Positions 30,641 through 49,177 are shown, counted from the stretch's first letter. The stretch: DNA of 64,000 nt from a virus (IMGVR_UViG_3300033074_001883:1-64000), one strand, 5' to 3'. The notes: generated by a model not told the origin, from the sequence alone. Made by a program: numbers and translations.

Positions 30641-31426
30641 TCAGCTTCCGAACAGCGACTTCAGCTCAGCCGAAAGCTGCGTGTGCATCTGCGGATCGAT
30701 GTACCCCGTCGACTCGTAGGCGCTCACGACGTACGGCTGGAAGCCACCCTTCTCGACGAGCGAGGAGAGTGCGTCGAGAGTCTGCGCCCGGCTGTAGCGA
30801 GGGGCGTCTGCGGACTGCTCGAACCGCTCCACCGCTTCCGACTTGCGGAGGACCGACCGGGGCTGCATCGAGACGGGCGCTTCGTCGATTCCGTCCACCG
30901 ACTTCCGGAGGTTCAGAACCATGTTGCCCATCGCGACGATGGCCTTCTGGATGCGGGCGTTGAAGGCCCGCTGCTCGTTGGCGAACTCTGCGTTCGACTT
31001 CGCGAGACCGTCCACCGACTGGGCGACGATGCCCGTCAGCTCTTCGAGGAACTCCGACACCTCGAAGGCCTTGTTGAGCGTGCCCGAGTCCTGAACCAGC
31101 GACTTCATCGACGCCCCGGTGGGGTCCTTCTCGTCGGCGTTGACGTTGAGGTCGCCGTCCAGATCGCCCTCATCCGCGAGGCCACCGTTGGCCTCGTCCG
31201 TGTCGTCAGGCATGCCCGGCGTTCCCGCCGTGTGCGCCTTGCCGACCGGCTCGTCCGAGTCTTCTTCCGACTCGTCCGACTCGTCCGACTCCTCGGCGTC
31301 CGCCTTCTCGAACTCCTCTTCGTCGGTCTCGGCTGCTTCACCTTCGAGCACGCCGAGTGCCTTGAAAAGCTCGTCCTCGGAAACCTGAGTGTTCTGCTTG
31401 ATGCTCTTCTTCGTGATCTTGTTCAT
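30641..31426 (-). CDS. Capsid scaffolding-like protein
   Basis: ATG 31426 with GGAGG SD. Very acidic N-half, coiled-coil C-half. Lies between protease and MCP, with many L/F-x-K-A/S sites. Confidence 0.7.
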   Translation of the reverse strand: MNKITKKSIKQNTQVSEDELFKALGVLEGEAAETDEEEFEKADAEESDESDESEEDSDEPVGKAHTAGTPGMPDDTDEANGGLADEGDLDGDLNVNADEKDPTGASMKSLVQDSGTLNKAFEVSEFLEELTGIVAQSVDGLAKSNAEFANEQRAFNARIQKAIVAMGNMVLNLRKSVDGIDEAPVSMQPRSVLRKSEAVERFEQSADAPRYSRAQTLDALSSLVEKGGFQPYVVSAYESTGYIDPQMHTQLSAELKSLFGS

Positions 31427-31452
31427 GTGCACTCACCTCCCTTCTGCGTTGT

Positions 31453-31734
31453 TCACTGAATGACTGCGAAATACTGCACTCGGCGGGAGACGCCAGCGGC
31501 AGCGCCAGCCGCGTCCCACGCGTAGATCGAAAACGACTTGCCATCGGCCGCGATGACCTCGGTGAGCGCGAGCGAGGCTGCCGCTTCGCCGCCCGTGTCG
31601 ACGTCGGTGAACGACGCCTTGACGAACAGGATGCGGTCGTTGAGGCCGTCGATCTTGATGCCGGTCTTGGAGCCCGTGAAGGTCTCCTGACCGAGCGCGA
31701 TGACGTTGTTGTGCGTGAAGATAGCTCCGGGCAT
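31453..31734 (-). CDS. Small head-associated protein (possible decoration)
   Basis: 93 aa beta-rich protein in the head operon. Confidence 0.5.
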   Translation of the reverse strand: MPGAIFTHNNVIALGQETFTGSKTGIKIDGLNDRILFVKASFTDVDTGGEAAASLALTEVIAADGKSFSIYAWDAAGAAAGVSRRVQYFAVIQ

Positions 31735-31738: not shown

Positions 31739-32569
31739 TTAGGCTCCTTTGACAGCGAATCCGAAGATGCGCCTGCACGCCGCTTCGGAGTAGTGGGGGC
31801 GCAACTCGCGGAGGATGCGAACAGCCTCCGCTTCCCGCAGACCGTCGGACTTCCGAACGACCCGCAGCGACTTCTCGGTTGGCTGCTCGTGCGTGCGCTC
31901 CATGTGGGCCGTGTAGCCGCCCTCAGAGCGAAACGCCTTCTTGCAGCCCTTGCACTGCCAGACTGCCTTGACTTCGTCGTGTTCGAGGTCCTGCGGCACC
32001 ATCACGCGGCCACCCGTCGTCGGGGTGATGGCGCTGCCTGCGGAGAGCGCGCGTTCGACGGTCTCGCCATCGAACGACTTCGCGAGGACCTCCCACGTGC
32101 AATTCGGGTTCACCGGGCTGTTGGTGACCGCGACGTTGCGGATCTTCGCCTTCACGATGTGGTTGCCGCGACGCTCGATGACCTTGCCTTCGATGCTGAA
32201 GCCGAGGCGACGCTTGGTGCCTTCGAGGCTCTTGGCGAGGTTCCAGATGTCGTCGACGCGGGAGAAGCCCTTGAGCATGTGGCCGGTCGTGTACCAGCCC
32301 TTGCCCTTGTGGAACTCGGCGGCATCGGGGACGCCCACGACGGCGGAGGTCGACTGGTTGTGGTTGTCGTTGAAGAAGCCGTGCTGCACGAACTCGCTGA
32401 AGTCGAGGCCCTTCTGGAGGACCACTTCGGACTGGCGATCGAGGTGCTCTGTCGAACAGTAACCACCGATGCGACGCGACTCCTCGCCGTCGCCTTCGCG
32501 GCTCTTCAGAATCTCCACCGTTCCGGGTTGCCAGATGGTGAAGAAGTCGTCGTTGAGGAGCTTGGTCAT
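31739..32569 (-). CDS. Prohead protease
   Basis: RRIGGYCSTEHLDRQSEVVLQKGLDFSEF..HGFFNDNH...GFSIEG...VAVT.SPVNP.CTWE..AKS. Confidence 0.9.
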   Translation of the reverse strand: MTKLLNDDFFTIWQPGTVEILKSREGDGEESRRIGGYCSTEHLDRQSEVVLQKGLDFSEFVQHGFFNDNHNQSTSAVVGVPDAAEFHKGKGWYTTGHMLKGFSRVDDIWNLAKSLEGTKRRLGFSIEGKVIERRGNHIVKAKIRNVAVTNSPVNPNCTWEVLAKSFDGETVERALSAGSAITPTTGGRVMVPQDLEHDEVKAVWQCKGCKKAFRSEGGYTAHMERTHEQPTEKSLRVVRKSDGLREAEAVRILRELRPHYSEAACRRIFGFAVKGA

Positions 32570-33453
32570 GAGGGGTCTTCCAGTCGGAGTTGTACCGCCC
32601 GAAGAGAGGTAGCGTCAACGTCGGACTGAAGAACGAGCGCGATGCCCTTGGAGACCGCCCGCTCTTGCCGATGGAACCACTCTTCGTACGAGGGGAACTT
32701 GTCTGTGCCGAGCTTGGGCGCACCCATCCGTCGGTATGCAAGACGGTCGCTGTGATCGAGGACGAATTGAATGCGCAACCACGTGTCGTCGACGCACGCG
32801 GCCGGTAGCAGCGGGCGAAGCACGTCCAAATCCTCACGCTTGATGCGCGCGAGCTTCTTGGTGGCCCACTCCGGCATGGGCAGACGTGCGTAGTACAGGT
32901 ACTTGTGGAAGACGCTCCGGTAACCCTTGTAGTAGCGGCCGAAGGAGAGCCCGTTGTCGATGGCCCAGACCTTCTTCTGCGTCGGGTCGGCGAGGATGTT
33001 CCGGCCGTGCCGGTCGACGTTGTTAACCACGAGGTCGAGGAGAACGATCTTCTGAAGATCGTCGAGGTTCGAGCGGAAGAAGAACTTGGCGAGCTTCTGC
33101 TTCCAGTCGCTCTGCTTCTTGTCGAAAAGCCCGGGCACCACGTCACGCGGTTGCATGCCGGTGACGACCCACTTCTGCACGCTGGCTTCGCGGCCCTTGT
33201 ACTTGGTGAGCACCGTCTCCGGCACCACGCCGAAGTCGAGCACGTGTGCGTCGAGGAGGTACGTCGCGACTTCCCTCCGAGGCAGCTCCTGCTTCGGGAT
33301 GCCCCGGAAGAAGTCGTTCGCGAAGGGCCTCGTCTTGAGGATGCCCTTCTCGCCGTTCGCGTAGACAGCAAGCTGCGCGTCGAACTTCCCCTCTTGAATC
33401 GAGGAGACTTTCGACGGCTGCTCGCTGTTGACGGTCTCGGCGAACTTGGTCAT
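32566..33453 (-). CDS. PI3/PI4-kinase-like (HipA/CtkA-related) kinase
   Basis: GILK, REVATYLLD...FGVVPETV, GREASVQKWV, catalytic-type LDLVVNNVDRHGRNIL and WAIDNGLSF. Confidence 0.8.
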   Translation of the reverse strand: MTKFAETVNSEQPSKVSSIQEGKFDAQLAVYANGEKGILKTRPFANDFFRGIPKQELPRREVATYLLDAHVLDFGVVPETVLTKYKGREASVQKWVVTGMQPRDVVPGLFDKKQSDWKQKLAKFFFRSNLDDLQKIVLLDLVVNNVDRHGRNILADPTQKKVWAIDNGLSFGRYYKGYRSVFHKYLYYARLPMPEWATKKLARIKREDLDVLRPLLPAACVDDTWLRIQFVLDHSDRLAYRRMGAPKLGTDKFPSYEEWFHRQERAVSKGIALVLQSDVDATSLRAVQLRLEDPS

Positions 33454-34043
33454 CAGACGTTGACGAGTGCGAGGTAGGTACGCGTGCCGTTCGGGAGGTT
33501 CGTGCCCGGGAGCACGGTGTTGAACTGGGTGTTGAACGTCGCCGCTTCCGGAACGCCCGTGACGGAGAGAATGCCGACCGCCGCTGCGAGGTTGCGAGCG
33601 ATGCCGAGCTTCGAGCCGGGGCCAGCCGTGGCCGCCGCCGCGTTCGCGCCGACCGCCGTCTTCACGGCCGAGGTGATGGTCTTGAACGCGACGTTGCCGA
33701 CGACCGTCGAGGCCGCGACCGCGACGATGGTCTCCGTCACCGGCTCATCGAACTGGTTCGTGCCGGTGATGACGACGTTGCCACCGTCCCACGACGCGGC
33801 GAAGGCGACCGCGATGTTGCGCGGCTGTGCAGGAGCGGCGGTGACGGTGAACGCGTTGCCTGCCGAGTTGCCTGCGAGCGACGCGAGCACGCCCGTGGTC
33901 GCGGAGGCTGCGGCGGCACCGAGGTTCACGAGCTGCGGGAGGAGGCCGCCCGCCTTGAGGTTGTCCGACGAGGAGATTTCGCGAGTGCGACCGAGGATCT
34001 CAGGGCTGTCGAGGCCCTGAACGACGAGAGTGGCGTTCGGCAT
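33453..34043 (-). CDS. Head decoration/fibre-like virion protein
   Basis: Ala/Gly/Thr-rich; PRNIAV...GNVVITGTNQFDEPVTETI...V.GNVAFKTITS pattern seen in phage structural proteins. Confidence 0.55.
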   Translation of the reverse strand: MPNATLVVQGLDSPEILGRTREISSSDNLKAGGLLPQLVNLGAAAASATTGVLASLAGNSAGNAFTVTAAPAQPRNIAVAFAASWDGGNVVITGTNQFDEPVTETIVAVAASTVVGNVAFKTITSAVKTAVGANAAAATAGPGSKLGIARNLAAAVGILSVTGVPEAATFNTQFNTVLPGTNLPNGTRTYLALVNV

Positions 34044-34079
34044 GGTGTTGCTCCGTGGGTTGGGTGTTGCGGTGGACTG

Positions 34080-34946
34080 CTACGAACCGAGGCCTTCGTA
34101 CACCAGCTTGCCTGACCGGTCGAACTTGAACCCGGGCGGCATCTCCTGAAGCTCGCACTGGCACCACGGGTGGTGACTCTTCACCGTGGGCTGGCGGTCA
34201 GCACGCACGCGGTTCACGTTGGTCCCGGTGGCGAGAAGCTCGCTGAGCTTGAAGACGCGCGGAGCGCCGCTCTTCGTGAGGTAGGCGCTCTTGCACTCCT
34301 CGCACGCGCTCTTGCGCACGCGCTTGAAGACCCACGGGTCTCGCCCCTTGTTCGACTTCTGGATGGTAGCGAGCTTGCCTTCTTGGAAGGCGTTGTTGAT
34401 TTCGGTGACGACGATGCGGTGCCAGTTGTGGGCGTGGTCGTTCGTCGCCTTGCGGAGTGCGCCGACGACCTCGTTGAGGCTCTTCCGCTTCTCGATGCCC
34501 TGCACGAGTTCACGTTTGACGACCGCCGCGAGTCGACGGCGGAGGTCTTGGTCTGCGTCGACGAGGACCTCCTGCGTCGACTGGTCGATGCGACCGCCGA
34601 GGCCCTTGAGGTGCGTCGTGACGGAGCGCTTGATGTGCTTGAGCGCCATCGTCTCCTCGGCGGAAAGCGGCACCGACTTCTGCGTGATGAAGTGCTTGAA
34701 GTCCGCGTACGACATGTCCTTCAGCTTCAATTCCTCCATCGAGTCGGCGAGGAAGCCGAAGAGGAACGCGCCTTCGACGAGGCCGCGCTTCACCTGCGCC
34801 TTGGTGACGAGGCCGGACTTGATGAGGCGGGCGACTTGCTCCTCCGGGAGCGTGTCACCGAGGCCGATCTGAACGAGGAACGCGCTGTGGTGGTCGTCGA
34901 TGATGCGCGAGACCTCCTTCAACTGCCGGTCGCTGAGCGCCTGCAT
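34080..34946 (-). CDS. MuF-like minor head (morphogenesis) protein
   Basis: NWHRIVVTEINNAFQEG...ACEECK...VFKLSEL...HHPWCQCEL...PPGF.FD. Confidence 0.8.
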   Translation of the reverse strand: MQALSDRQLKEVSRIIDDHHSAFLVQIGLGDTLPEEQVARLIKSGLVTKAQVKRGLVEGAFLFGFLADSMEELKLKDMSYADFKHFITQKSVPLSAEETMALKHIKRSVTTHLKGLGGRIDQSTQEVLVDADQDLRRRLAAVVKRELVQGIEKRKSLNEVVGALRKATNDHAHNWHRIVVTEINNAFQEGKLATIQKSNKGRDPWVFKRVRKSACEECKSAYLTKSGAPRVFKLSELLATGTNVNRVRADRQPTVKSHHPWCQCELQEMPPGFKFDRSGKLVYEGLGS

Positions 34947-34947
34947 G

Positions 34948-35328
34948 TTAGCCAGCCTCCGGGTCAGCGGGCTCGGTCTTCCACTCCTCGAACTCGCGCG
35001 TCTTCAACGGGTTCTTTCCGAAGAGCGACTCGTGCTCCTCTGGAGGAAGCTCGTCGTAGTGCGCGTTGCCCTTGAGCCACTCGGGTTCGTCGACGCCGAA
35101 CTTCTTGCAGTACCACCGAAGCGCGGGCCGCACCTTCTCGACGTGGTGACGGCGGGACTGGGTGTTGTCGGCCGTGTGGAGCTTGATGAACGGGTTCGCG
35201 AAGCGGTCGAGGGCGTGCCGCAGCGTCGCCTCGTCGCGGATGCCCGGGAGCACGGTCTCGGGGGAGTAGTAGTCGGGGAGGAGACGAGCCCCGACCTTCT
35301 TGAGACGGAGATGAGGTTTCGCGCGCAT
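34948..35328 (-). CDS. Hypothetical protein, DUF6582-like
   Basis: I.DEATLRHALDRF.N...V..AL...CKKFGV resembles the recalled DUF6582 pattern (HVR.AL.RF.Q...I..AAKKFGI). Confidence 0.45.
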   Translation of the reverse strand: MRAKPHLRLKKVGARLLPDYYSPETVLPGIRDEATLRHALDRFANPFIKLHTADNTQSRRHHVEKVRPALRWYCKKFGVDEPEWLKGNAHYDELPPEEHESLFGKNPLKTREFEEWKTEPADPEAG

Positions 35329-35331
35329 GGG

Positions 35332-38300
35332 TCACACCAACTCGAAGTCGTGAAGCGTCTTGATGAACCGCTTCACCATAGCATCAGTCGGCCGCTTATC
35401 GAGCGCTTCCTCGAAGAGGTCAGACCAGTCAGACATCGAGGCAGGCTTCTTCCGCGCCGAGCGCACGACTTCGACGATGGCCTTGAGCGGAAGCACGACT
35501 CCGCCGCCCATGTCGACCTCGTGCTTCTTGTACTCCTTCGTCTCCGTGTGCGGGCCCTTCAGCTTGTAGGCCCAGCCGCCCATGTAGTTAACCGACGGGG
35601 CCTTCACCTCCGGGTGCTCAGGCTCCGGGGCGGCCTTCGCCTTGCCGCCCTTCGCGGGAGCGGCCTTGGTCGGCTCCGGCTTCTTCTGTTGCGGGAGCGG
35701 CGTCTCCGAAGCCTTCGGCGTGTGCGTCGAGCCGCCCGTGCTGATGATGCCGAGCTTGTCGAGTTCCTTGAGGCCTTCCTTGACGACCTTCTCGACGTCG
35801 TCGCGGTTGTCCCACCACTTCTGGGCTGACGCGAGGTGCGCGGTGTGGTCTTCGACTTCGCCCTTCGCGTTACGCTTGACCTCCGCGTCGACGCCCGCCT
35901 TGAGATGGTCGTCGATGAAGTCCGTGAGCGTGAGGCCGCCCTTCGTCTTCTTGACGGCAGCGAGCACAGCCTGCGCCGTGGGGCTGAGCTTCGACGTCGG
36001 GACCTTCGTCGAGTTCGGCGAGAGCACGTACGTCGGCTCTGGCTGCGTCGGCTCCATGTCCGGTGACGGCACCATCGTACGGCCGAGGTTGCGGTTCTGG
36101 CGAACCCAGTCGCGCTCTTCCTTGTCTACGCGGCTGAGCGCGGTGCGGTACTCCTCTGGAGTGACCTCGCCGTTCTTCTTCTTCACGCCCAAGAGCATGC
36201 GCTTCGTCTTGAGGGACTCCTGCCGGAAGTCGAGGTACTCCTTGTACTCGACCGTCTTCGAGAACTCCTTGAGGTTGAACTTCGGCTGACCGGCGACGAA
36301 GCGGAGGTCTTTTGGCGTAACGAGACCCTGAAGACCCTTCGACCGGATGCGCTCTTGGAGAACGGAGTCCGGCGTCTTCTCGATCTGAGCCGCCGCGATG
36401 CCCTCGTCGCCGCCGAGGACCGCTGCCATCTGCTGCTGCATGCGGGCACTCATCAACGTCTCGTCGTAGGCCGACGACATCGCGACGTCCGTGCCGACCT
36501 TCTTCCCGAGGCCAGCGATCTTCTTCTGGTCGAAGGTCCCCTTGAGGTACATGTTAATCACCTCGACGTCGTTCTTCTGACCGGTGCGCCACACTCGCCC
36601 GAGGGCCTGCTGCTTGTGGCCGATCATGAACGGCTGGTCGAGGAAGACCATCTTGTTCGACTTCTTCTGGAGGTTCAGACCGGCACCACCGGCCTGCGTC
36701 CCGACGAAGAGCACCTTGATCTTCCCGGCGTTGACTGCGTCCTGCATCGCCGCGCGGTCGTTGACGTCGACGCCACCGTGGATCTCGCCAATGAGCGACG
36801 GGTCGATGTTGTGCTTAAGCAACTCCTCCTTCGCGTACTTGAAGGACCCCGGCCACTGGCTGAAGACGACCATCGGCTTGTCGTGGTTGCCGGGCACGTT
36901 GAAGTGCGCCTTCACCAACTCCGCGAGGTGTTCCAGCTTCGGCTGCGCGCCGTCGTAGCCGTGCTTCTTCCACTCGGCCGGGTCGTCGCCGAGCACGAGG
37001 CGCGGTGAGACGGAGAGCATCTGCTGCTGATGCATGACCTTGAAGTGGCCGCCCTTCTCGATCTCCGAGGCCGGGACGAACGGTTGACGCTCCTTCTCGG
37101 GGAGCTTGGCTTGGCGAGCGTCGTAGTCGTGCGGCTTGATGTCACCAGCCAACTCGAAGAGGCGAGCGAACGAAGGCGGGGCCACGAGGCCGTGCGTCGC
37201 GCCGCCCTCTTCGCCCTCGTCGCCGATGAGCCTCGGCAGAACCTGAACAGCCTTCTTGTTAGCCTCGACGACGTCCGGGTCGAGCTTGTTCTTGCGGAAC
37301 ACGTACGGCTGAACGTCCTTCGCGACACGACCCCAGTCAGCGACGGAGGTGACCTCTTCGGCACCCTCCTCGTTGATGCCGACCTCGTCGACCATCATCT
37401 TGTTCTCGAACTTCTTCACGTCCGGGCCAGCGGAGCCCGGGTTGATGAGGTCCATCAACTCGAAGAGTTCCTCTGGCTTGCCGTTCGGCATCGGCGTCGC
37501 GGTGAGGAGGAATGAGTGCTCACGGTCCTTGAGGAACTCACGCGCAGCGGCGTTGTGCGTATTCGCCGCCGTCTTCAGGCCCTGTTGCTCGTGGTGGGCC
37601 TCGTCGAAGAAGACGCACCCCTTGAGCTGCCGGAGCGCCGTGCAGAGCTTGTCGCCGGAGGCGTGGTCGCGGAGCGCCGTGACGAACTCGTCGTCCGTGA
37701 CGCCCTTCTTCTTGACGACCTCGCCCTTGTCGTTCTCCTCGAAGATCTCCGAGCCCTTGAACGACGCACGCGTGTCCTCGTGGAAATTGACCACTGACGA
37801 GGAGAGGATGACGAAGTCGGCTTCGAGGTCGCCGTTCTGGATGGCTTCGAGGACCTTCACGCGGTCCTCTGCGCTCTTGACGTCGTCGCCGATGGTAACG
37901 ACCTTGGCGTCGGGGAAGAACTTGCGGATCTCCCCGGGCCACTGCTTCGTGAGGCCGAGCGGCATCACCATGATGCCGCGTGCGTCGCCCTTTCCGATCT
38001 TCCCTTGCTTAGCCAACTCCTGAAGGTGGGCGATCATCGAGATGGACATGGGCGTCTTCCCCATGCCCGTGTCGTACGCGAGGATGCCGCGTTTGATTTT
38101 CGTCATCCAGCTCAGGGCCTGACGCTGGTACGGGAACAGGTCGTGACCTTGGCCCTGCGCCTTGAAGCCGTCCGCGATACCCTTTGGGGTAGCGAAGCTC
38201 GTGTCTTCTTGCGCGGCCAGCGAGGACTCGATGAGCGCCTTCTGGGCGGCGACCTTTTCGGCCAGCCGCTTGATCGCGTTGTCGTCCTTGAAGAGTGAGT

Positions 38301-39636
38301 CGGGCGCGATGGACTGCGTGAGGATGAGACCGAGTTCGGCACCACCGGAGTCGTCGTTGAAGGAGCGAACGTAGTTGTAGATCTCGCTCGCCAACTCGCG
38401 CGTGCGGGCGAACCCCTTCTTCGCCGCCTCGTCGTCGAACTCGTCTGCGCCGAACACCGAGTGCAGGAGCTGCACGTTGAGTGACTTGTTCGCGCGTTCG
38501 ACGTCGGACTTGCCTTCGTCGTTGAGCGCGAGGTCTTTGAACTTGTCACCATCTTTGAAGTAGCCGTCCGTCTCGTTTCCGACGTCGCCGCCCGGCTGGA
38601 AAGCGATGCCGCCTTCGCGCATGTCGCGGAACATCTGGGCGACGTAGATGGCGAGCGCCTGAGTGCCGTTCGTGTCGTCGAGACGCGAGTAGAGCGCTTG
38701 GAGGCGCTCCTTGTTCGGAACGATGTTACCCACCGCCCGCTTCGCGTCCTTGCGCTGGACGAACGTCTCGCCCGCCTCGCGCGCGTTGTGCGGGATGTGG
38801 AGGAGTTCCATGTCCGACATGAGCGCAAGGAGACGAATCGCTTCGTCCTTCACGTTGCCGGTGAGGATCTGGTCCGTCTTCCCGTCGCTGTACTTCTCGC
38901 TGCGGCGAATCTGCGCGTGCGCGTGCTGCTCCTGAAGCTGGCGCTTCTGCACCGCCTGCCGCGCCTTCTGCCGGAACTTCGGGTCTTCGAGGAGGCCGTG
39001 GTAGGCCTCGAACATCTGAGCGAGGGCTTCTTCGCCCTCCTTCTCGTCGATGCCCGCTTCCTCGCAGAGGTCCTTCCAGTAGTCCTTGATGTCGAGGCCT
39101 GCCGTGCTCGCGTCACGGAAGAGGGCCATCACCATGTCGGTGTCGTAGCCCTTCGACGTCATCGCTGCCTGCACCTCGGAGCGGATGGACGAGTGGTAGT
39201 TGTAGACGACATTGATGTTCTCGTGGAGCTTCTTGGTCTCCTCCTCGTCGAGGGGTTCCCACTCGCGCTCGTTGTCGTCGTCAGTCGGCTTCGTGCCGTA
39301 GCGAACGTGACCGTTCTTGTCGCGCCACCACTTGCCACCACGGATGCCGGGGTTCTTGATGCCTGCTTCGCGGCGCTTCTTGTCGGCCTCGATGTCCTTG
39401 GCCGTCTTCGGCTTCTTCGCGCCCGGGGCCTTCGCCGCCTTGGCGAAGTCTTCGCTGAGCCCACCGGGGATGACGTAGAGCCCCTCGGACTTGGTGATGC
39501 CGTGTGCCCGACCGAGGACCGAGGCGATGGCCTCGTTCATTCGACCGAGCATCCCGATGTACTCGCGGCTGAGGTTAGTCGCGAGTTCATCGAGAACCGG
39601 GTGTGCCAGCATCACTTCGTCACGAGGAGTCTCCAC
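35332..39636 (-). CDS. SNF2-family (SF2) helicase/translocase, 1434 aa, probably virion-packaged
   Basis: LFPYQRQAL, AYDTGMGKT (I), FFDEAHH (II), LLTATPMPNGKPEELF (III), VFSQW, IHGGV...R, GGAGLNLQ, QALGRVWRTGQ (VI). Long N- and C-terminal extensions. Confidence 0.9.
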   Translation of the reverse strand: METPRDEVMLAHPVLDELATNLSREYIGMLGRMNEAIASVLGRAHGITKSEGLYVIPGGLSEDFAKAAKAPGAKKPKTAKDIEADKKRREAGIKNPGIRGGKWWRDKNGHVRYGTKPTDDDNEREWEPLDEEETKKLHENINVVYNYHSSIRSEVQAAMTSKGYDTDMVMALFRDASTAGLDIKDYWKDLCEEAGIDEKEGEEALAQMFEAYHGLLEDPKFRQKARQAVQKRQLQEQHAHAQIRRSEKYSDGKTDQILTGNVKDEAIRLLALMSDMELLHIPHNAREAGETFVQRKDAKRAVGNIVPNKERLQALYSRLDDTNGTQALAIYVAQMFRDMREGGIAFQPGGDVGNETDGYFKDGDKFKDLALNDEGKSDVERANKSLNVQLLHSVFGADEFDDEAAKKGFARTRELASEIYNYVRSFNDDSGGAELGLILTQSIAPDSLFKDDNAIKRLAEKVAAQKALIESSLAAQEDTSFATPKGIADGFKAQGQGHDLFPYQRQALSWMTKIKRGILAYDTGMGKTPMSISMIAHLQELAKQGKIGKGDARGIMVMPLGLTKQWPGEIRKFFPDAKVVTIGDDVKSAEDRVKVLEAIQNGDLEADFVILSSSVVNFHEDTRASFKGSEIFEENDKGEVVKKKGVTDDEFVTALRDHASGDKLCTALRQLKGCVFFDEAHHEQQGLKTAANTHNAAAREFLKDREHSFLLTATPMPNGKPEELFELMDLINPGSAGPDVKKFENKMMVDEVGINEEGAEEVTSVADWGRVAKDVQPYVFRKNKLDPDVVEANKKAVQVLPRLIGDEGEEGGATHGLVAPPSFARLFELAGDIKPHDYDARQAKLPEKERQPFVPASEIEKGGHFKVMHQQQMLSVSPRLVLGDDPAEWKKHGYDGAQPKLEHLAELVKAHFNVPGNHDKPMVVFSQWPGSFKYAKEELLKHNIDPSLIGEIHGGVDVNDRAAMQDAVNAGKIKVLFVGTQAGGAGLNLQKKSNKMVFLDQPFMIGHKQQALGRVWRTGQKNDVEVINMYLKGTFDQKKIAGLGKKVGTDVAMSSAYDETLMSARMQQQMAAVLGGDEGIAAAQIEKTPDSVLQERIRSKGLQGLVTPKDLRFVAGQPKFNLKEFSKTVEYKEYLDFRQESLKTKRMLLGVKKKNGEVTPEEYRTALSRVDKEERDWVRQNRNLGRTMVPSPDMEPTQPEPTYVLSPNSTKVPTSKLSPTAQAVLAAVKKTKGGLTLTDFIDDHLKAGVDAEVKRNAKGEVEDHTAHLASAQKWWDNRDDVEKVVKEGLKELDKLGIISTGGSTHTPKASETPLPQQKKPEPTKAAPAKGGKAKAAPEPEHPEVKAPSVNYMGGWAYKLKGPHTETKEYKKHEVDMGGGVVLPLKAIVEVVRSARKKPASMSDWSDLFEEALDKRPTDAMVKRFIKTLHDFELV

Positions 39637-39670
39637 AGTTCACCGCCCGGCACGCTACGAGGTTGAGGGT

Positions 39671-39766
39671 TCAACGAGTCAGAAGGTAGAGCCCGGCCGA
39701 GGAGACGAGGGCGAGCGCGAGAAGCGCTGCCCTCAGAAGGCGGATGCGACGCCGCATAGCGCGCAT
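39671..39766 (-). CDS. 31-aa single-TM peptide
   Basis: Strong SD GAGGAGGAG before ATG 39766; MRAMRRRIRLLRAALLALALVSSAGLYLLTR fills the gap between two genes. Confidence 0.5.
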   Translation of the reverse strand: MRAMRRRIRLLRAALLALALVSSAGLYLLTR

Positions 39767-39783
39767 CTCCTCCTCGTACGACT

Positions 39784-40353
39784 TCACTCTTCGTCCGAGC
39801 CCGGCGTCGCGCGCTCCATCTCCGGGTTGCGGAGCGAAGGCGTGATGAGCGAGTTCTCTTCGAGCTGCTTCGAGAGAACCATGTCGGGGAGCGCGGTGTA
39901 CTCGACGACCGACACGGAGTCGAACGAGGGGAACGACTTCACGACGCCCGAGCGAGGAGCATGCGGCTTCTTCGCGTGGTCGCGCTCCGCGCCGCCACCG
40001 GCCGACGAGACGCCCTTCTTCTTGACGAACGAACCGGGCTGCGAGCCACGGACCGGGTTCATCTCGTTGCCGATCTTCGCGGCAACGCCCTTGCCCTTCT
40101 TCTTCATGCCCTTCTCGACATCGGTCTCGAAGAACTCGGCGAACGACTTGATCATGACTTCTCCTTCGGGTTGGTCCTGCGTGGTTGACTTGCCCATCTT
40201 CGTCATCTTGTTGAGCGACGCCGTGTTCTTCTTCTTCTGCGCAGCGGAGAGGCCGGGCGCGTGAACGACCTTGCCCATCTTCGGCTTGTTCTTCTTCTTC
40301 CACGCCATCGTCGCCATGCCCTTGCCCTTCGCGAGATACTCTCTTCCAGTCAT
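39784..40353 (-). CDS. Lys-rich hypothetical protein (putative internal head protein)
   Basis: 189 aa, very basic, with MIKS/VEKG/VVKS motifs. ATGA-coupled to the upstream gene. Confidence 0.6.
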   Translation of the reverse strand: MTGREYLAKGKGMATMAWKKKNKPKMGKVVHAPGLSAAQKKKNTASLNKMTKMGKSTTQDQPEGEVMIKSFAEFFETDVEKGMKKKGKGVAAKIGNEMNPVRGSQPGSFVKKKGVSSAGGGAERDHAKKPHAPRSGVVKSFPSFDSVSVVEYTALPDMVLSKQLEENSLITPSLRNPEMERATPGSDEE

Positions 40354-41933
40354 GAGATTGCTCCTTGCTTCTTGAGTAGCGAGTGGAATTCCTTGGCCGA
40401 CTTGGCCGCGTCGGACTGTGAGAGGTCGTAGCCCTTGGTCAGGAAGGTAGCAAGTTTCGCCAGCGTGTTCACCCCCGAGACGTGGAGTGAGTCGGCGAAC
40501 TCGCGCTCCTCGGTGCCCTTCTTGAGGGCGCGCGGGTTGAGCGTGAAGCTCTTCTTCGAGAGCGCGGCCTTGTCGCGCTTGATGCCGGTCTTCAGCTTCG
40601 TGACCTGCTCCTCGGCCTCGGTGATGTCCTCGCGGAGGTGGTCGCGGGAGACGGGCACGGTCTTCGTCTTCGCGAGCGTGACGCCGCGCTTGGCGAGGTC
40701 GGCCTTCTTCGGGTTGAGCGACTTGGTGGCCTGACGCTTGAGCACGGCGAAGACGGAGGCGAGGTACTCGTCGCTAACCTTGTGCTTCGTGATGAAGCTG
40801 GAACCGTGTTGCTTGAAGAACGTGATGAAGCCGCGCTCGTCGCGGGAGTCGGCGATCTTGTGGAGCCGGTCGACGGTGACGCCGAGGACGGCTGCGAGCC
40901 GGTGGGGCGACGGCTCCACCATCGTGTCCGGGGCCATGTCCGGGACCGCGCCCTTCGGTGACGACGCGGCGGCGGGCTTCTTGCCCGACGGCTTCCGGTA
41001 GTCGTAGGTCTTCTTGCCGTTCTTGCTCGCGCCCACCTTCGCCGTCGGTGCTGCGGTCGCTTTCTTCTGTGGTCGCTCGCGCTTCTCCGACGGCTTCGTG
41101 AGGATGGCTTTGTTGAGGTGCTCGTCGATGCGCTCAACGAGTTGGCTGGCGACATCGTCCGAGTAGGCGTCGAGGCCGTGGTGCTTGAAAGCACGCACCG
41201 CTTCGAGACGCTGACTGCGCGCGGAGTCGAGCCTTCCGGCCATGGCCGCGCCGAGCGCCTCGTCGAGCAGACCACGAGCCGCTTGCACAGAGAGCTTCGT
41301 CACCGGACCGGCCGCGCCCTTGGCTCCGACGTGAACCAGCTTCCCCGACTTCGTCTTGCGCGTGTACGCCTTGTGGTTCTTCGACTTCTTCGTCTCCTCC
41401 GACGACTCGTCCTCGACGCCGTGCATCGCGTTGAAGATGCGCTTGTCGCGGTTCGCGGGCATCGACTCCTTGCCACGTCCTGCCGAGGCGGCCGGTGAGC
41501 CTGCGCGGTCGGTGCCTACCATCGAGCCGATGGCCTTGTGCACGAGGTTCATGAAGGCGCGATTCTCGATGGCCTTCTTGTAGACCTCGTACGGACCGAA
41601 GCGCTTCGCTGCGAAGTAGCCCTTGGCGACCTCGAAGAGCTTCACGCTCGGCATCGACTTGATGGTCTCCTCTTCGTCGACCGGGCGCTCTTCGTAGTAG
41701 CGAACGACCTGATGCTTCGTCGCGCGCTCTTGGAACGCAGTGATGCGGGCCGCGTTCTCGGGGCTGTCGGTGTCGCGCGTCACTTCGTCCTTCGGGCCGT
41801 ACTTGCCCGTCCAGAAGCCCTGCCCCTGCGCCCCTGACTCCGGGTTGAGGTAGAGCTTCGCGGCGGAGATCTGCGTGTGACGGTTGCCACCGCCGCTCAC
41901 TACGCCATTCGGCTGTTCACGTTCGACGCCCAT
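40350..41933 (-). CDS. Basic hypothetical protein (putative internal head protein)
   Basis: 527 aa with many hydrophobic-x-K-[ASG] sites and a YTRKTKSGKLVHV motif. Confidence 0.65.
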   Translation of the reverse strand: MGVEREQPNGVVSGGGNRHTQISAAKLYLNPESGAQGQGFWTGKYGPKDEVTRDTDSPENAARITAFQERATKHQVVRYYEERPVDEEETIKSMPSVKLFEVAKGYFAAKRFGPYEVYKKAIENRAFMNLVHKAIGSMVGTDRAGSPAASAGRGKESMPANRDKRIFNAMHGVEDESSEETKKSKNHKAYTRKTKSGKLVHVGAKGAAGPVTKLSVQAARGLLDEALGAAMAGRLDSARSQRLEAVRAFKHHGLDAYSDDVASQLVERIDEHLNKAILTKPSEKRERPQKKATAAPTAKVGASKNGKKTYDYRKPSGKKPAAASSPKGAVPDMAPDTMVEPSPHRLAAVLGVTVDRLHKIADSRDERGFITFFKQHGSSFITKHKVSDEYLASVFAVLKRQATKSLNPKKADLAKRGVTLAKTKTVPVSRDHLREDITEAEEQVTKLKTGIKRDKAALSKKSFTLNPRALKKGTEEREFADSLHVSGVNTLAKLATFLTKGYDLSQSDAAKSAKEFHSLLKKQGAIS

Positions 41934-44577
41934 TGGGTCCCCTCAACACACGACGGAGTTTGACGAGCAACTGAGCGAGCACGGGGTCGACCCGAGTCGC
42001 GGACTTGATGATGAGACCGATGGGGCGCTTGATGGCCTTGTTGTCCATCGCTCGCTGCTGAACGATGAGGCGCGCCATCTGCTCGATGACCTCTGGTGAC
42101 GCGCCCTCGATGGAGACGACCTTGCCGCCCTTCTTCTGCACCGTGAACGCGGTGCTGATGGGCGTGCGCACCTTCGCGCCCGTCGGCATGTCGGCCACCT
42201 TGGCGTCGTGCGTAGCGTAGGCGGCGGCCTGCGCGCGGTGGTGGTCGTCCTTGAACTTGAGGAACTCGGGACGCGTCGACAACGCGGCGAGCCGCCACGA
42301 GCCGAGCTTCGAGAGCTTCCGCCACACCTTCATGAGGTGGATGCCACGAAGCTGCTTGAGCCGGAGTTGCGGCGTCATCCCCAATCCGGCCGGAGCGACG
42401 TGACCCATGCCGAGGTCGAGCTGCGAGGCGGGGTCGAAGTGCGGAGCGCGGTTGGTCGACACGGGTTGACCCGCGACGTTGCGAGCCTGCGCCGCCCAGA
42501 AGTCGTGAGCCTCTCGCACCTTCGGGTGCGCGATGAGCGGGTGCTGCTTCGCCGAGTGCCCCGTGACGGGAGGCTTGAGGTTGACTTGCCGGGAAATCTT
42601 CGCGTGGAGCGGGAGCGCCGTCGACTCGCCCGGCTTCGACTGCTTGTGCTTAGCCGCCTGCGTGGGCTCGTGAATCCGCTCCCACGCTTGCGTCCCCGGG
42701 ATGGAGGCGCGACGGAAAGCCGACACGCGGATGAGCGCGCGGATGCCCTCCTTGAGGCCTTCCTTCTCACTCGGGCGCAGACCGGCTGCGAAGCCGTCGC
42801 CCGCGACGCGAGTGAGGGACGAGAGGTTGCGCGTGAGCATGCCCTTGATGTGAGCGACGGACGGGCCCTCGTGCTTCGTCTTCTTGAGGTAGCCCGCGAC
42901 GTCCTTCGCGACGGAGGTCCAGTCTTTCAGCCCGCCGCCACCCGACGGCGTGTCGTCCGGGTTGTGGAGGTTGAGGCGCGACATGAGGCCGATGGCCGCG
43001 ATGGGCGAGAGGCGCGTCTCGACAATGCGCTGCACGTCCTTGATGGCGACGATGTCCTCGGCCGACGTGTACGGCGTGCCGAGTGCGTCGGTGTGCTCTC
43101 GAAGCTGCGACGAGGTGAACGCGCCCTCCTCGTTCCACGTGAGGGCTCCACCAATCTCGTGGAGAATCTCGGGCTCCACCGTGCCCGCGTGGATGGCGTC
43201 TGCGAGTGCGGAGCGCACGGTGTTCTGCGCCGTCTTCTTGAGTAGCGACAACGCGTAGAAGCGGAAGTTGGAACCACTGTCGCGACCCGTGCTCGCCATG
43301 TGCGCCGTGTACGTCTCGGCGATGTCGTTGAGCTTGATGCGGAGGTCGGACTCGATGTCCTTCGCCAGCTCCTTCGAGTCGAGGATGGTGCCCCACCCCA
43401 TCTTGTTCGTACCGAACGCGCGGCCTCGCGCGATGTTCCGGATGTCGGAGTCGAACTCCTTGAAGAGGGCGGCCCGCTGACCCGGCGTGAACCAGTTGCG
43501 GCCGGACTCCGGGAGACGCTCGCCGCGCCAACCGGAGGAGAGTGCGTAGGCGAGGGGGTTCGACTGTGGGTCGAGGTCGTTGATGTCGGCCGACTCGGTG
43601 ATGATGAGTCGCTCGCCGACGCCGAGCTTCGGTGCCTTCGTCGGCACGACGAGTGCGAGCCCCTTGGTGCCCTTGAGCTTCCACTTCAGGTTAGTCAGTT
43701 GCTGCTCGATGTGCGGCGGGAACTCAAGCGCCGACTTCGGCTTCTCACCGAGAGCGCGAATCTTCTTCGACGCGGCCTCGTGCTCTTTCAGGTACAGAGC
43801 CCACTTCTCCGGGTTCTGCTTAATCCACTCGCGGCCTTCCTCGCGAAGCTGCTCCACCTGCTGCTGGAGCGTGAGCACGCGGAGGAGCTTGGTCGCGAGC
43901 GGGCGCTTGTTCACTTGCGGGAAGAGCGCGGCGAGGTCCTTCTTCACCTTGTCGAGCTTGACCTGAAGGTCCGCCTTCGCTTCGAGGAGGCTCTGCGAGT
44001 CCTTGTGCTCGGCGAGCTTCGCCGTCGCGTTGCCGATCTTGCTGATGAGCACGTCGCGCTGCGCGCCGAGCGCGACTACCTTCTTCGCGGCGTCGTAGCC
44101 GACCGGGTCGAGCTGCTTCAGCTTGTCGCCGAGGCGCACGTACGTGTAGCGGATGTTGTTCTCGTGGTCGGCCCGGCGCGCCTCGACCTCCGCCACAGAG
44201 ACCGACGTAGCCCCTTCCAGAGGCACCGGGATGCCCGCAGGCGAGAACTTCAGGCCCGAGGAGGGCCCGGAGGTGGGCGGAGGGGCGATCGTCGTTCCTG
44301 CGGCCGCGTAGGGCCTCGGAGCGCCCTTCTTCTCGGTGGCCGTGTTCGCCGGGAAGCGGTGGGGTGAGGTGAGGTCCCGAGCCACGGCCACGTTGCCTCG
44401 ACGGTGCTGGAGCGCGAGCCACGTGCCGATGCGGCCGGAGTCCTTGGCGTAGAAGTATTGCGGGTACGTCTTCCCGGCACGAGTCGTCACGTCGTAGATG
44501 GCGACGTACTTCGTCTTGCCGCTACCGGCCGTGCGACCCTTCTTCAGGTTAACGATGTTGAAGACGCCGAAAGTCAT
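41917..44577 (-). CDS. Large protein with a sigma70-like region 2/4 module
   Basis: ATG 44577 overlaps the portal TGA. Region-2-like FDSDIRNIARG...DL.IKL.DIAETY...GSNFRFYAL.LLK...N.VR; region-4-like VQRIVETRLSP...GL.SRLNL...TSVAKDV...SVAHIK.MLTRNL.SL. Confidence 0.55.
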   Translation of the reverse strand: MTFGVFNIVNLKKGRTAGSGKTKYVAIYDVTTRAGKTYPQYFYAKDSGRIGTWLALQHRRGNVAVARDLTSPHRFPANTATEKKGAPRPYAAAGTTIAPPPTSGPSSGLKFSPAGIPVPLEGATSVSVAEVEARRADHENNIRYTYVRLGDKLKQLDPVGYDAAKKVVALGAQRDVLISKIGNATAKLAEHKDSQSLLEAKADLQVKLDKVKKDLAALFPQVNKRPLATKLLRVLTLQQQVEQLREEGREWIKQNPEKWALYLKEHEAASKKIRALGEKPKSALEFPPHIEQQLTNLKWKLKGTKGLALVVPTKAPKLGVGERLIITESADINDLDPQSNPLAYALSSGWRGERLPESGRNWFTPGQRAALFKEFDSDIRNIARGRAFGTNKMGWGTILDSKELAKDIESDLRIKLNDIAETYTAHMASTGRDSGSNFRFYALSLLKKTAQNTVRSALADAIHAGTVEPEILHEIGGALTWNEEGAFTSSQLREHTDALGTPYTSAEDIVAIKDVQRIVETRLSPIAAIGLMSRLNLHNPDDTPSGGGGLKDWTSVAKDVAGYLKKTKHEGPSVAHIKGMLTRNLSSLTRVAGDGFAAGLRPSEKEGLKEGIRALIRVSAFRRASIPGTQAWERIHEPTQAAKHKQSKPGESTALPLHAKISRQVNLKPPVTGHSAKQHPLIAHPKVREAHDFWAAQARNVAGQPVSTNRAPHFDPASQLDLGMGHVAPAGLGMTPQLRLKQLRGIHLMKVWRKLSKLGSWRLAALSTRPEFLKFKDDHHRAQAAAYATHDAKVADMPTGAKVRTPISTAFTVQKKGGKVVSIEGASPEVIEQMARLIVQQRAMDNKAIKRPIGLIIKSATRVDPVLAQLLVKLRRVLRGPNGRRT

Positions 44578-46361
44578 CAGAGGTCCCGGAAGGAAGAGAG
44601 CGCCTTCTTGAGGTCGCCCGCGAGATTCTTCGGCAGCGAGGCGTGGATGGTCTCCTCCCACACGTCGCTCGTCTCCTCACGGGAGAACGAGTGCTCGTCG
44701 TTGGGCGTGGCTTCCTCGTCCTTGGCGGGAGCGCCAGCGGGCGCGGAGGTCTGCGTGTCCTTCTCGATGGCTCCGCCGAGACGGCGCTCGGGCTGACCGG
44801 GCTGAGGCGGCTTGTTCGGAGGACCGAACTGCTGCTCGAACATCTCCTTGTGGCTCGGAGGACGGCCGCCCGACGGGAGGCCGGGAGGCATCTCGGGTGC
44901 GCCACCGGGCGCACCACCGGGAGCGCCGGGCATCCCCGGCATGCCGCCCGGAGGACCCGCCTGCTGCTGAGCCTGCATCGCGAGTTGGTTCTTGAGCCCG
45001 ATGTACGTCGGGTTCATCACCGTGTCCCCGTGTTCGACTGGCGCGAGTTCGTCGGCCTCGCGGCGGATCTCGTTGAGCGTCTTGTACGAGCCGAGTTCCT
45101 TCATGCGGAGTTCGATGGCTTCCGACTCCGAGCGAGCGTCGAGGCCGACGAAGAGGAACTCGTAGTCCTCGTCCATCTCCCAGATGATTTCCTCGTTCAC
45201 CGTGTTCTGGAGGAAGCGCAGGAGCGGCTGGAGGCCTCGGTCCTTCGAGACCTTCTGCTGCGCCTCGTTCGTCGTCATGAACATCGGCTGCGAGCCGACG
45301 CCACCACGCGAGTCGAAGTTAATCTCAGCGGGGTCGATGAGGTAGACGGCGCACGCGATCTTGATGAGGTACTCCAGCCACTGCTGGAACCCCATGTCGT
45401 TGTTGCTCGGCTGAAGCGGAATCCACTGAAGGTTATCCGAGTTCATCACGGGCGTGCGCCACGCGTTCGACACGCTGCTCACCTGCGTGAGCCACTGCCG
45501 ACGGAACGCCTCCATCTGCGGCGCGGGCACCTTGCCCTGCACGTTCAGGATGCCCTTCACCGTCGAGCCCTGAGAGAAGACCTTGCGGTTCCACTCCTCG
45601 GCCCAGAGGTGCGACGTCACCGTGTTGATGAGCAACTCCAACTCGGAGAGCCCGTAGCCGTAGCTCTTCAGGTCGGTGCGCGGGTTCGCGACGCGGAAGA
45701 TGAGTTCCCGGCGCGTGAACTCGTTGACGATGGTGCCGTCGATGACTTGCACGTACTGCGGCACGTACGTCTGCTCGTGCTTCGTGAGCGGAGCGCCACG
45801 GCGCGTCTTCGCCGGAGCGATGCGGTACGTCGCCGAGTCGACCGCGTGAATCGAGTAAGGTCGGCCGTTGCGACGGAGCACCTTCTCGGAGACGAGCTGG
45901 TCGTAGACGAGCCGGTCGCGCACGACCTTGCGCGCCCACGTCTCGAACGAGTCGCGGCCCGGGTCGCGGCCCTCACCCATGTTCTGGATGAACCTCTCCA
46001 GATGCGTGATGTGCTCTTTCTCGGAATCGGTGAGCTTGCGCTTCTGGTCGCGGTGCTGAACGCGGAAGCCGACGCTGTACTTGTTCCGCTGCGGTTGGCA
46101 GAACGACGCGACTTGGTTAACCCGCGTCTGGACGATGGCGGAGACGACCGAGTTCTTCTCGCTCATCTGCTTCAGCGTCTCGTACGAGATGGCCGACGGG
46201 TTGGACCGGTAGCCCAAGCCCATCGAGTCCATCAACGCGTACGGATCGTTGAACCATGACTTCGGGATGCCGAGTTGCTGCCCGTCACCCGAACCCTTCT
46301 GGAGGTCAGCGTGATCGAGGCCCGCCTGTACGAGCGCGAGCGTGCTGTTGGGGTGCGCCAT
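44577..46361 (-). CDS. Portal protein
   Basis: LKQMSEKNSVVSAIVQTRVNQV..F, DSFETW.RK.VRD.L.YDQ, YGYGLSELE, WN.K.FSQG...GIL, DMGFQQWL.YL...CAVYLIDP.EINF. Confidence 0.93.
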   Translation of the reverse strand: MAHPNSTLALVQAGLDHADLQKGSGDGQQLGIPKSWFNDPYALMDSMGLGYRSNPSAISYETLKQMSEKNSVVSAIVQTRVNQVASFCQPQRNKYSVGFRVQHRDQKRKLTDSEKEHITHLERFIQNMGEGRDPGRDSFETWARKVVRDRLVYDQLVSEKVLRRNGRPYSIHAVDSATYRIAPAKTRRGAPLTKHEQTYVPQYVQVIDGTIVNEFTRRELIFRVANPRTDLKSYGYGLSELELLINTVTSHLWAEEWNRKVFSQGSTVKGILNVQGKVPAPQMEAFRRQWLTQVSSVSNAWRTPVMNSDNLQWIPLQPSNNDMGFQQWLEYLIKIACAVYLIDPAEINFDSRGGVGSQPMFMTTNEAQQKVSKDRGLQPLLRFLQNTVNEEIIWEMDEDYEFLFVGLDARSESEAIELRMKELGSYKTLNEIRREADELAPVEHGDTVMNPTYIGLKNQLAMQAQQQAGPPGGMPGMPGAPGGAPGGAPEMPPGLPSGGRPPSHKEMFEQQFGPPNKPPQPGQPERRLGGAIEKDTQTSAPAGAPAKDEEATPNDEHSFSREETSDVWEETIHASLPKNLAGDLKKALSSFRDL

Positions 46362-48478: not shown

Positions 48479-49177
48479 TTAATCTCCTCGCATGCCCTTC
48501 ACCGCCGACACGCAGTCGGAGATGAGGAGCTGGGTGTTGTGGTGAACCGACGTGGACTTCTCGAAGGCGGCCTTGGTGGCATCGGCTGAGGCCGACCGGG
48601 GGACGTGCCACGCGGAGTAAGCGTAGCGCGGGAAGATGAAGCCCACCGCGTTGAGGGCCATCATGAGCTGCCCGGTGGCACCGAGCGCGCCGTCACCGAC
48701 GACGAGGAGACCGGCGAGCTTGTCCTTGATGAGGGGCTTGCCAGCCGCCGCTTGGTTCACGAACGGGTTGAGCCGCTCGATGAAGCGCTGGGTGTAGTGG
48801 TTGAGGCCGCCCCATCGAACGTCGGTCGCGAGGATGAGGATGTCGGTCGCGATGAGTTGCTCGTAGAGCATCGCCATGCCGTCGTTCGGCTGGAAGATGT
48901 CGGACTCGATGTCGTTGCGGTCGCACGGGTGCATGCACACGCGCCCGCCTCCGCCGTAGCAGCCGACGCACGGGTGGATGCGCGTGCCGGTGAGCGAGTA
49001 GTTCGCGACCTCGACATGCGCGTCACGGAGAAGCTGGGTGGCCTCCTCCGCCATCCAGCTTGAGGCGTTCGGCTCGTCGGCTCGCGCCGAGGTGATGACC
49101 ATGGCCTTGACGGCTTGGTCGCTCGGCGACGGAGACGCCTTGCTCAGGAAGTCCTCGACGGAGATGGGGGACGTCAC
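48479..49177 (-). CDS. Flavodoxin-fold NAD(P)H-dependent FMN reductase / iron-sulfur flavoprotein (WrbA/Isf family)
   Basis: ITSAR...SS.MA, IHPCVGCY...VCMHPC, DGM..LYEQL...DILILAT.V.WGG...Y...FIERL, K.AGLLVVG. Confidence 0.85.
   Translation of the reverse strand: MTSPISVEDFLSKASPSPSDQAVKAMVITSARADEPNASSWMAEEATQLLRDAHVEVANYSLTGTRIHPCVGCYGGGGRVCMHPCDRNDIESDIFQPNDGMAMLYEQLIATDILILATDVRWGGLNHYTQRFIERLNPFVNQAAAGKPLIKDKLAGLLVVGDGALGATGQLMMALNAVGFIFPRYAYSAWHVPRSASADATKAAFEKSTSVHHNTQLLISDCVSAVKGMRGD

Follow-up and report, generated by a model that had tools for sequence, protein, structure and literature searches.

A block of nine minus-strand genes (positions 32566-44577; 12,012 nucleotides) lies between the portal and prohead protease genes of a virus represented by the stretch IMGVR_UViG_3300033074_001883:1-64000, here called the window, which covers the opening 64 kb of an 80,045-bp IMG/VR virus record with a CheckV completeness estimate of 62%. 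The block is an old, lineage-wide module and not a recent island, and we give about an even chance to the further reading that it is a conserved cargo module, set in the head-morphogenesis operon, whose products are loaded into the head; the analysis establishes what genes the block holds, how they are coupled and conserved, where a motif recurs and which folds are predicted, and packaging, cleavage, ejection and every target are matters that we infer. An initial annotation of this DNA had described a cargo island of about 12 kb, a candidate injected host-takeover and anti-defence kit in a combination not recognised from described phages. The word "island" proved misleading, since the same order recurs in at least seven diverged metagenomic relatives, and this genome is not alone in having the combination.

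Gene order and coupling

The block and its neighbours in the operon are as follows (aa, amino acids; pI, isoelectric point; ORF, open reading frame).

46375-48171, minus strand: u598, a 598-aa basic protein (pI 9.7) with a Cys-rich N-terminus (C-x2-C ... C ... C), directly upstream of the portal gene
44577-46361, minus strand: portal protein, 594 aa (PF04860, 3.9e-20; phrog_15361, 1.1e-60)
41917-44577, minus strand: p886, an 886-aa basic protein with no family match and 16 phmmer homologues
40350-41933, minus strand: p527, a 527-aa basic protein, aligned by BLASTP to topoisomerase carriers
39784-40353, minus strand: p189, a 189-aa Lys-rich basic protein (pI 9.8) with no family match
39671-39766, minus strand: a 31-aa ORF with one hydrophobic helix (the transmembrane peptide of the initial annotation)
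35332-39636, minus strand: SNF2-family ATPase, 1434 aa (PF00176, 5.8e-18; PF00271, 2.4e-9; phrog_62, 1.4e-53)
34948-35328, minus strand: p126, 126 aa, between the SNF2 and MuF-like genes in every relative examined
34080-34946, minus strand: MuF/SPP1-gp7-like minor head protein, 288 aa (phrog_115, 1.6e-6; phrog_4728, 8.1e-5)
33453-34043, minus strand: p196, a 196-aa beta-rich protein, possibly a cement or decoration protein
32566-33453, minus strand: PI3/PI4-kinase-like atypical kinase, 295 aa (PF00454, 38.3 bits; gathering cut-off 27.1)
31739-32569, minus strand: prohead protease, 276 aa (phrog_1028, 5.6e-54)
31453-31734: unnamed 93-aa ORF between protease and scaffold
30641-31432, minus strand: acidic scaffolding protein, 263 aa, pI 4.3 (weak phrog_15087 match)
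29039-30505, minus strand: major capsid protein (MCP), 488 aa, SPO1 type (phrog_752, 3.7e-84)

Transcription follows the order given, from u598 and portal through p886, p527, p189, the 31-aa ORF, SNF2, p126, the MuF-like gene, p196 and the kinase to protease, the 93-aa ORF, scaffold and MCP. The portal stop and the p886 start (ATG) have 1 nucleotide in common, p886 and p527 overlap by 17 nucleotides and p527 and p189 by 4, SNF2 and p126 are 3 nucleotides apart and p126 and the MuF-like gene 1, p196 overlaps the kinase gene by 1 nucleotide, and kinase and protease overlap by 4 (ATGA coupling). At six of the nine junctions inside the block, the genes overlap or stand at most 3 nucleotides apart, and the only longer gaps are three of 17-36 nucleotides. 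No convincing minus-strand terminator or sigma-70-type promoter was found inside the block, the scan being at chance level, and a crude intergenic 8-mer search for phage-specific promoters gave no signal. The encoded proteins are Lys-rich (8.8% vs 5.1% elsewhere), four of them with a pI of 9.7-10.1. In SPO1 and SP-10 the portal, protease, scaffold and capsid genes form an uninterrupted run, and the portal and protease genes are adjacent in P1 (PMC9024508); the 12,012-nucleotide separation seen here is therefore real, and the initial observation that portal and protease are split by tightly coupled genes was confirmed for ORFs and junctions, against the adjacency in cultured relatives.

Conservation of the module

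A word-based protein search with p886 found a single relative, on the 54-kb Logan contig L002, where synteny is identical to the window and proteins are 66-96% identical. An exhaustive phmmer search with p886 over 1.84 billion representatives returned 16 homologues of 25-85% identity, and gene contexts were fetched for five of these and for three kinase homologues. The same gene order was found in L002, L008/L013, L009/L012, L010, L015, L016 and one ENA contig, with protein identities of 30-94%; the short contigs L007 and L011, which end after the gene following p886, were excluded from this statement. To the ends of the contigs, the consensus in the relatives is large basic protein, portal, p886-like protein, carrier, small basic protein, SNF2, a ~130-aa protein, MuF-like protein, 0-3 variable genes, kinase, protease, a ~95-aa protein, scaffold and capsid. 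The SNF2, ~130-aa and MuF-like genes are immediate neighbours in each locus containing them, and the kinase gene lies directly upstream of the protease gene in all seven loci reaching that position. The slot before the kinase is variable, p196 being absent in L016 and extra 504- or 650-aa genes being present in L015 and the ENA contig. The relatives, which come from Logan and JGI samples, have conserved, syntenic counterparts of all nine, which are therefore real genes and not chance ORFs. For the 31-aa ORF, frame and a conservatively substituted sequence are preserved in L002 only, and more distant relatives show no gap at its position. A megablast search with the block found no match among 50,697 phage records, and an IMG/VR scan with p886 gave no relative.

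One relative carries intein or LAGLIDADG insertions in its portal, SNF2 and protease genes (L009:5533-8466, L009:15139-20487, L012:12793-14460), whose products have 977, 1782 and 555 aa, respectively.

A protease-type motif in head and block proteins

The N-terminal MCP sequence L-N-K-A-L-x-A-G is invariant in this phage, its relatives, SPO1 and SP-10, and NLNK|A would be the expected place of the maturation cut; a literature search found no publication fixing the Herelleviridae capsid cleavage site. Counts of the motif L-x-K-[AGS] are 5 in the scaffold, with 0.34 expected (p ~0.001), and 3 in the protease, with 0.26 expected (p 0.004). Across five orthologues, six sites are conserved in each of the two proteins (in the protease as [LIVMF]-x-K-[AGS]). 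The same type of site closes a short leader at the start of p886:

44539-44577, minus strand: 13-aa leader of p886, M-x-F-G-V-F-x-x-x-N-L-x-K and then G or A, modelled as disordered

Of 15 full-length p886 homologues, with identities as low as 25%, 14 have the hydrophobic-x-K-[GA] site of the leader; 12 show L-x-K in the strict form, P0004 has V-V-K-A and P0008 has I-N-K-A, and P0014 has no leader. This motif equals the invariant MCP site, and the leader may be a propeptide or a capsid-targeting signal that closes with a protease-type site.

In p886, the conserved sites are K13 and K858 only, and in the 1434 residues of the SNF2 protein [LIV]-x-K-[SA] is conserved nowhere but at K49 and K66. 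The C-terminal sites ALKK|G and FLxK|G of p527 are conserved in all orthologues, the portal has conserved sites at K22, K34 and K586, and u598 has four of the form [LIVMF]-x-K-[AGS]. Sites are thus many in the scaffold and terminal only in the large enzymes, which is the pattern expected of protease-gated cargo.

p886 and its probable sigma-like module

The layout of p886 consists of the N-terminal leader, a long coiled coil (residues ~148-305), a sigma-like module and a C-terminal helical part. A model built from a 17-sequence alignment (pLDDT, predicted local distance difference test, 72.6) has residues 1-22 disordered, followed by the long coiled coil and helical domains. Fold searches with the whole protein were dominated by the coiled coil, and a sigma signal was clear only when residues 325-640 were folded alone (pLDDT 72.7), giving the following feature:

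42748-43587, minus strand: sigma-70-like module of p886, residues ~331-610 (predicted fold)

In the prediction, a sigma2-like part spans residues ~331-474 and a sigma4-like helix-turn-helix (HTH) residues ~520-600. With this sub-model, the top 10 PDB matches in Foldseek were all sigma factors, with weak E-values (from 0.16), and in an unbiased VIA alignment against 48,161 PDB chains about 27 of the 32 top rows were sigma factors. The best of these were S. aureus sigB (Z 8.3, 163 residues aligned), ShbA (7.3) and T4 gp55 (7.2), and further matches included SigI6, pro-sigmaK, SigK, sigma28 and SigC region 2 (Z 6.4, 87 of 89 residues). Among the 17 p886 homologues, Sigma70_r2 is the sole Pfam family to match more than one, and it matches two, weakly and below cut-off (best E 0.0042). 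By sequence profile (Sigma70_r2 and Sigma70_r4), p886 itself is not recognised as a member of the Sigma-70 family; a PDB profile search with p886 returned coiled coils only, BLASTP of p886 against the SP-10 sigma factor gave no match, and an ESM Atlas search with the module gave no usable match.

One p886 homologue carries a NUDIX domain (9.7e-17), and the sigma-like family thus also gains enzymatic add-ons.

The basic proteins p527, p189 and u598

By BLASTP, residues 2-248 and 257-527 of p527 align to the two ends of 1008-1230-aa proteins encoded in the equivalent slot of L008, L009 and L010, the middles of which are type IB topoisomerases (PF01028, 1e-16 to 3.5e-18, plus PF02919). The Topoisom_I catalytic core is absent from p527 in Pfam searches, and the alignments identify p527 as the remnant of a type IB topoisomerase carrier from which the central ~700 residues, including the enzyme, were deleted. 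The L002 orthologue (L002:6808-8115) has a further 92-aa deletion, the end of which coincides with the H-L-N-K|A site of p527. Some relatives fuse domains, such as topoisomerase with DUF5661. A literature search on packaged type IB topoisomerases in phages found nothing relevant.

Syntenic homologues of p189 have 194-278 aa. A 34-residue Lys-rich segment of p189 (residues 25-58) is 79% identical to residues 342-375 of the large pre-portal protein of a relative (L008:5658-8219), which suggests that short modules are swapped among putative cargo proteins. The two basic proteins named in the initial annotation, p527 and p189, are thus real conserved genes, the former now read as a carrier remnant. 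Homologues of u598 (626-853 aa), with conserved blocks and variable inserts, occupy the equivalent position in L002, L008, L009 and L010; u598 lies outside the interval originally delimited and within the conserved block, and it may be further cargo. Searches of u598 against Pfam, PHROG, NCBIfam and PDB sequences gave no usable match, and the same searches with p527, p189, p126 and p196 likewise gave nothing usable.

The SNF2 ATPase, the kinase and the smaller proteins

The SNF2 protein scores above the Pfam cut-offs (PF00176, 65.4 bits against 24.9; PF00271, 37.8 bits against 23.5), and its motifs are intact: GMGKT (GxGKT), DEAH, and QALGRVWRTGQ (QxxGRxxRxGQ, motif VI). The core spans residues ~495-1047, the N-terminal ~480 and C-terminal ~385 flanking residues are also conserved, and orthologues in relatives are 50-94% identical over the full length. 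The best named matches are SCO1167 helicase, DrmD and Rad26, with RapA weak, and no methylase family was found outside the helicase core (Pfam, NCBIfam, PHROG). The kinase also matches TIGR03843 (3.5e-17, below its cut-off); its GILK, NNVDRHGRN and IDNG motifs are invariant in four orthologues, about 20 metagenomic orthologues were found, and tblastn against the 50,697 phage records gave no match. With PF00454 above its gathering score and catalytic motifs invariant, the kinase is a solid assignment, as is the SNF2 ATPase, both as first annotated.

The MuF-like protein has a full-length, 32% identical homologue in SP-10, gp137, encoded directly upstream of the SP-10 portal, and another in Mx1, next to the portal there on its downstream side; the gene in the window is not adjacent to the portal gene and lies 9.6 kb downstream of it. 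Phages with a MuF-like homologue also give the best SNF2 matches, a few kb away. Residues C215, C218, C262 and C264 are invariant across the SP-10, Mx1 and Bacteroides phage homologues, which suggests a zinc site. TIGR01641 gave 16.6 bits (0.0079) against a cut-off of 39.65, and PF04233 did not match the window protein and matched two of nine relatives (E 0.0011). Orthologues of p126 are 61-93% identical. In the comparison of the window with L002, p196 diverges most (76%); an ESM Atlas search placed it with viral clusters only, with a modest TM score of 0.54 to a PF22758 Phage_cement cluster and no sequence match. Thus, among the names first given to these three proteins, MuF draws on phrog_115 and on homologues beside portals and is weak against the two families just mentioned, decoration protein is likewise weak, drawing on the cement-cluster similarity with no match in sequence, and the DUF6582-like label of p126 is unsupported, with no Pfam match at E<=5.

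Genome context

The window has ~64% GC, and its minus strand carries nearly every gene. Capsid and portal proteins are 39-46% identical to their Herelleviridae counterparts (39% for MCP against Herelleviridae MCPs, 44-46% for portal against SPO1-like portals), and the source phage belongs to an uncultured clade of SPO1-like (Herelleviridae-like) myoviruses. The terminase genes lie beyond the window:

genome 64219-65934: large terminase subunit, TerL (phrog_675, 2.9e-125), ~18 kb upstream of the portal gene
genome 64219-66710 (L004:2219-4710): TerL together with a TerS-like gene

The 598-aa gene before the portal was considered as a terminase candidate and was rejected when TerL was found. As in SP-10 and SPO1, the ~18-kb stretch from TerL to portal is mixed, with ParB-like, flavin mononucleotide (FMN)-reductase-like and many small genes. 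The FMN-reductase-like flavoprotein (window 48479-49177) is encoded three genes upstream of the portal and is conserved in all relatives. A small ORF (~69 aa) has a weak, sub-threshold Sigma70_r4 HTH match (window 60177-60272, E 0.0056), and a search of the 80 kb of the record, which is 62% complete, revealed no canonical Sigma70_r2.

Packaging and alternative explanations

In the packaging model, the cassette would be co-transcribed and co-translated with portal, protease, scaffold and capsid protein, and the prohead would take in at least the large basic proteins (p886, p527, the SNF2 protein and probably u598), with the MuF-like protein as a possible portal-associated adaptor. The prohead protease would cut the cargo ends at [LIV]-x-K|[AGS], and the cargo would leave the capsid together with the DNA. 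After entry, host RNA polymerase and the incoming DNA would be the substrates of the sigma-like module and the SNF2 translocase, which would serve early transcription and remove or circumvent host proteins bound to DNA; relatives would deliver a type IB topoisomerase as well, and the PI3/4-kinase-like enzyme would add phosphate to a target of host or phage origin. An anti-defence role, as initially envisaged, would be pure conjecture. A more specific proposal is that the capsid delivers a transcription take-over kit, in which a virion-borne sigma-like protein captures the host RNA polymerase core at DNA entry, SNF2, the kinase and the topoisomerase IB of relatives assist, and protease-gated leaders load them all; we regard this as unlikely. 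To our knowledge, an injected sigma factor has not been described, known phages injecting whole RNA polymerases or modifying enzymes.

The cassette stays within the head-morphogenesis operon across diverged relatives, and the loss of the enzyme from p527 with its termini kept, the NUDIX domain on a p886 homologue and the extra genes before the kinase amount to a modularity typical of delivered effectors. The originally proposed co-ejected set agrees with the operon position, the MuF-like gene, the terminal motifs and the precedents of P1 and Lalka27a (see below), and fits less well for the kinase, p126 and p196, which have no conserved motif site. This is one of several points that weigh against packaging. 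The phage is uncultured and known from sequence, and cleavage specificity is deduced from conservation alone. The FMN-reductase-like protein, taken as a control, has a conserved N-terminal L-x-K-[AGS] site at K13, so that either the motif gives false positives or this protein is another head-associated one, and two upstream genes are motif-rich. For p886, no Pfam (E<=5), NCBIfam, PHROG or PDB sequence match was found, and VIA Z values of up to 8.3 for a helical domain are in the range flagged by the tool as possibly non-specific, for which reason the sigma2/sigma4-like module at residues ~331-610 is graded likely, not established; the sigma-like label of the initial annotation thus holds for the predicted fold and for the weak Sigma70_r2 matches of two homologues, with Pfam blank on the window protein. 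Finally, the region between terminase and portal of SP-10 contains a sigma factor and an SNF2 helicase in the company of holin, Fpg, PhoH and other plainly non-structural genes, and SPO1-like phages often place non-structural genes among head genes; head-region location in this lineage is therefore weak evidence for packaging.

The latter arrangement, together with the ~18 kb of mixed genes before the portal here, also speaks for a different explanation, in which the products are late-expressed enzymes that stay outside the virion and the head-operon position serves only timing. The sigma-like protein would then drive or sustain late transcription, for which SPO1 gp34 and T4 gp55 are models, SNF2 (and the topoisomerase of relatives) would ready replicated DNA for packaging, and the kinase would regulate assembly. 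The presence of T4 gp55 among the best structural matches of the p886 module and the absence of a canonical sigma factor from the incomplete record are consistent with such roles. This explanation, which we consider possible though somewhat unlikely, leaves unexplained the family-wide disordered leader with its capsid-type L-x-K|[GA] site, the confinement of conserved sites to protein termini, the keeping of both carrier ends after loss of the enzyme, and the strict placement after portal and before protease in all relatives, as opposed to the adjacency of these genes in cultured ones.

It is also conceivable, and in our view rather improbable, that the large basic proteins serve the head structurally, in an internal core or by condensing DNA (as an inner body or an auxiliary scaffold), and do no enzymatic work once ejected, the sigma-like fold and SNF2 being exapted or incidental. 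High pI, Lys-rich low-complexity stretches, the long coiled coil of p886 and the persistence of p527 without its enzyme would suit such proteins, and the motif sites would suit scaffold-like processing. The catalytic motifs of the SNF2 ATPase and kinase are nonetheless intact and invariant, and these motifs together with full-length conservation of SNF2 argue for selection on enzymatic activity. That the block was gained recently, as a moron or defence island, or arose as an artefact of assembly, with no connection to head function, is extremely improbable: the island label and the lack of a close DNA match in the 50,697 phage records would agree with it, whereas GC content and GC at third codon positions (GC3) in the block equal those of the flanks, and the synteny survey, with at least seven diverged relatives from independent samples, contradicts it.

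If the proteins are packaged, capsid-borne effectors would extend past anti-restriction proteins and whole RNA polymerases to a sigma-like factor, a chromatin-remodeller-type motor, a eukaryote-type topoisomerase and a lipid-kinase-fold enzyme. Loading and cleavage would follow a simple code, a leader plus [LIV]-x-K|[AGS], that could be adapted to deliver proteins with phage capsids. The enzyme deleted here and present in relatives would be a natural experiment separating loading parts from functional parts.

Comparison with known systems

Among the closest known arrangements is that of the P1 Dar proteins (DarB, Ulx, DarA, Hdf, DdrA, DdrB), in which the gene for a very large SF2/SNF2-type helicase, as here, lies beside portal and protease genes. 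The 250-kDa DarB is packaged through an N-terminal signal of at most 30 residues, loading into the head takes place with helper proteins, and the protein is ejected with the DNA (PMC9024508). The window SNF2 protein has a weak match to the DarB-like phrog_10089 (1.1e-11, helicase C part only) and, unlike DarB, is without an N6-adenine methyltransferase domain; it is therefore not a DarB orthologue. No DarA, Hdf, Ulx or Ddr homologues were detectable, the partners being instead a sigma-like protein, a kinase and a topoisomerase carrier, in a SPO1-like capsid lineage. In the Thermus phage Lalka27a, a phage of a different type, the 1715-aa SF2-helicase-domain protein Lvh is encoded in the structural cluster and was found in virions by mass fingerprinting (bioRxiv 10.64898/2026.04.20.719267); a large helicase protein is likewise encoded among structural genes here.

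Polyvalent proteins, as treated in passages of Iyer et al. 2017 (PMC5512222), combine MuF, SNF2, kinases and other effectors, with co-entry with DNA predicted, and share with this block a domain vocabulary (MuF, SWI2/SNF2 ATPase, kinases) and a virion-gene context. They carry 2-15 effector domains per polypeptide, whereas here the genes are separate and translationally coupled, fusions occurring only in some relatives (the NUDIX and DUF5661 cases described above), and the kinase is PI3/4K-like in contrast to their truncated Ser/Thr kinase. Sigma-like and type IB topoisomerase payloads do not appear in those passages, and the word "topoisomerase" occurs once in the text. The internal proteins and Alt of T4 also have a short N-terminal leader ending at a head-protease site, and the T4 capsid-targeting sequence is mentioned in the P1 study (PMC9024508). 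In T4, the leader is removed after loading and the payload acts on host transcription or defence (PMC9024508, PMC5512222); here the motif is [LIV]-x-K|[AGS] instead of L-x-E, the proteins are far larger, and cleavage and targeting are putative.

The virion RNA polymerases of N4 and of phiKZ-like phages are late products stored in the capsid that start transcription in the next host. Those phages carry whole RNA polymerases, whereas here there would be a sigma-like module only, which would have to capture the host core enzyme. In summary, the principle of cargo that is loaded in the capsid and injected is known, and the payload proposed here is unusual; distinctive are the separate coupled genes, the different payload, the proposed K-specific motif and the SPO1-like capsid lineage.

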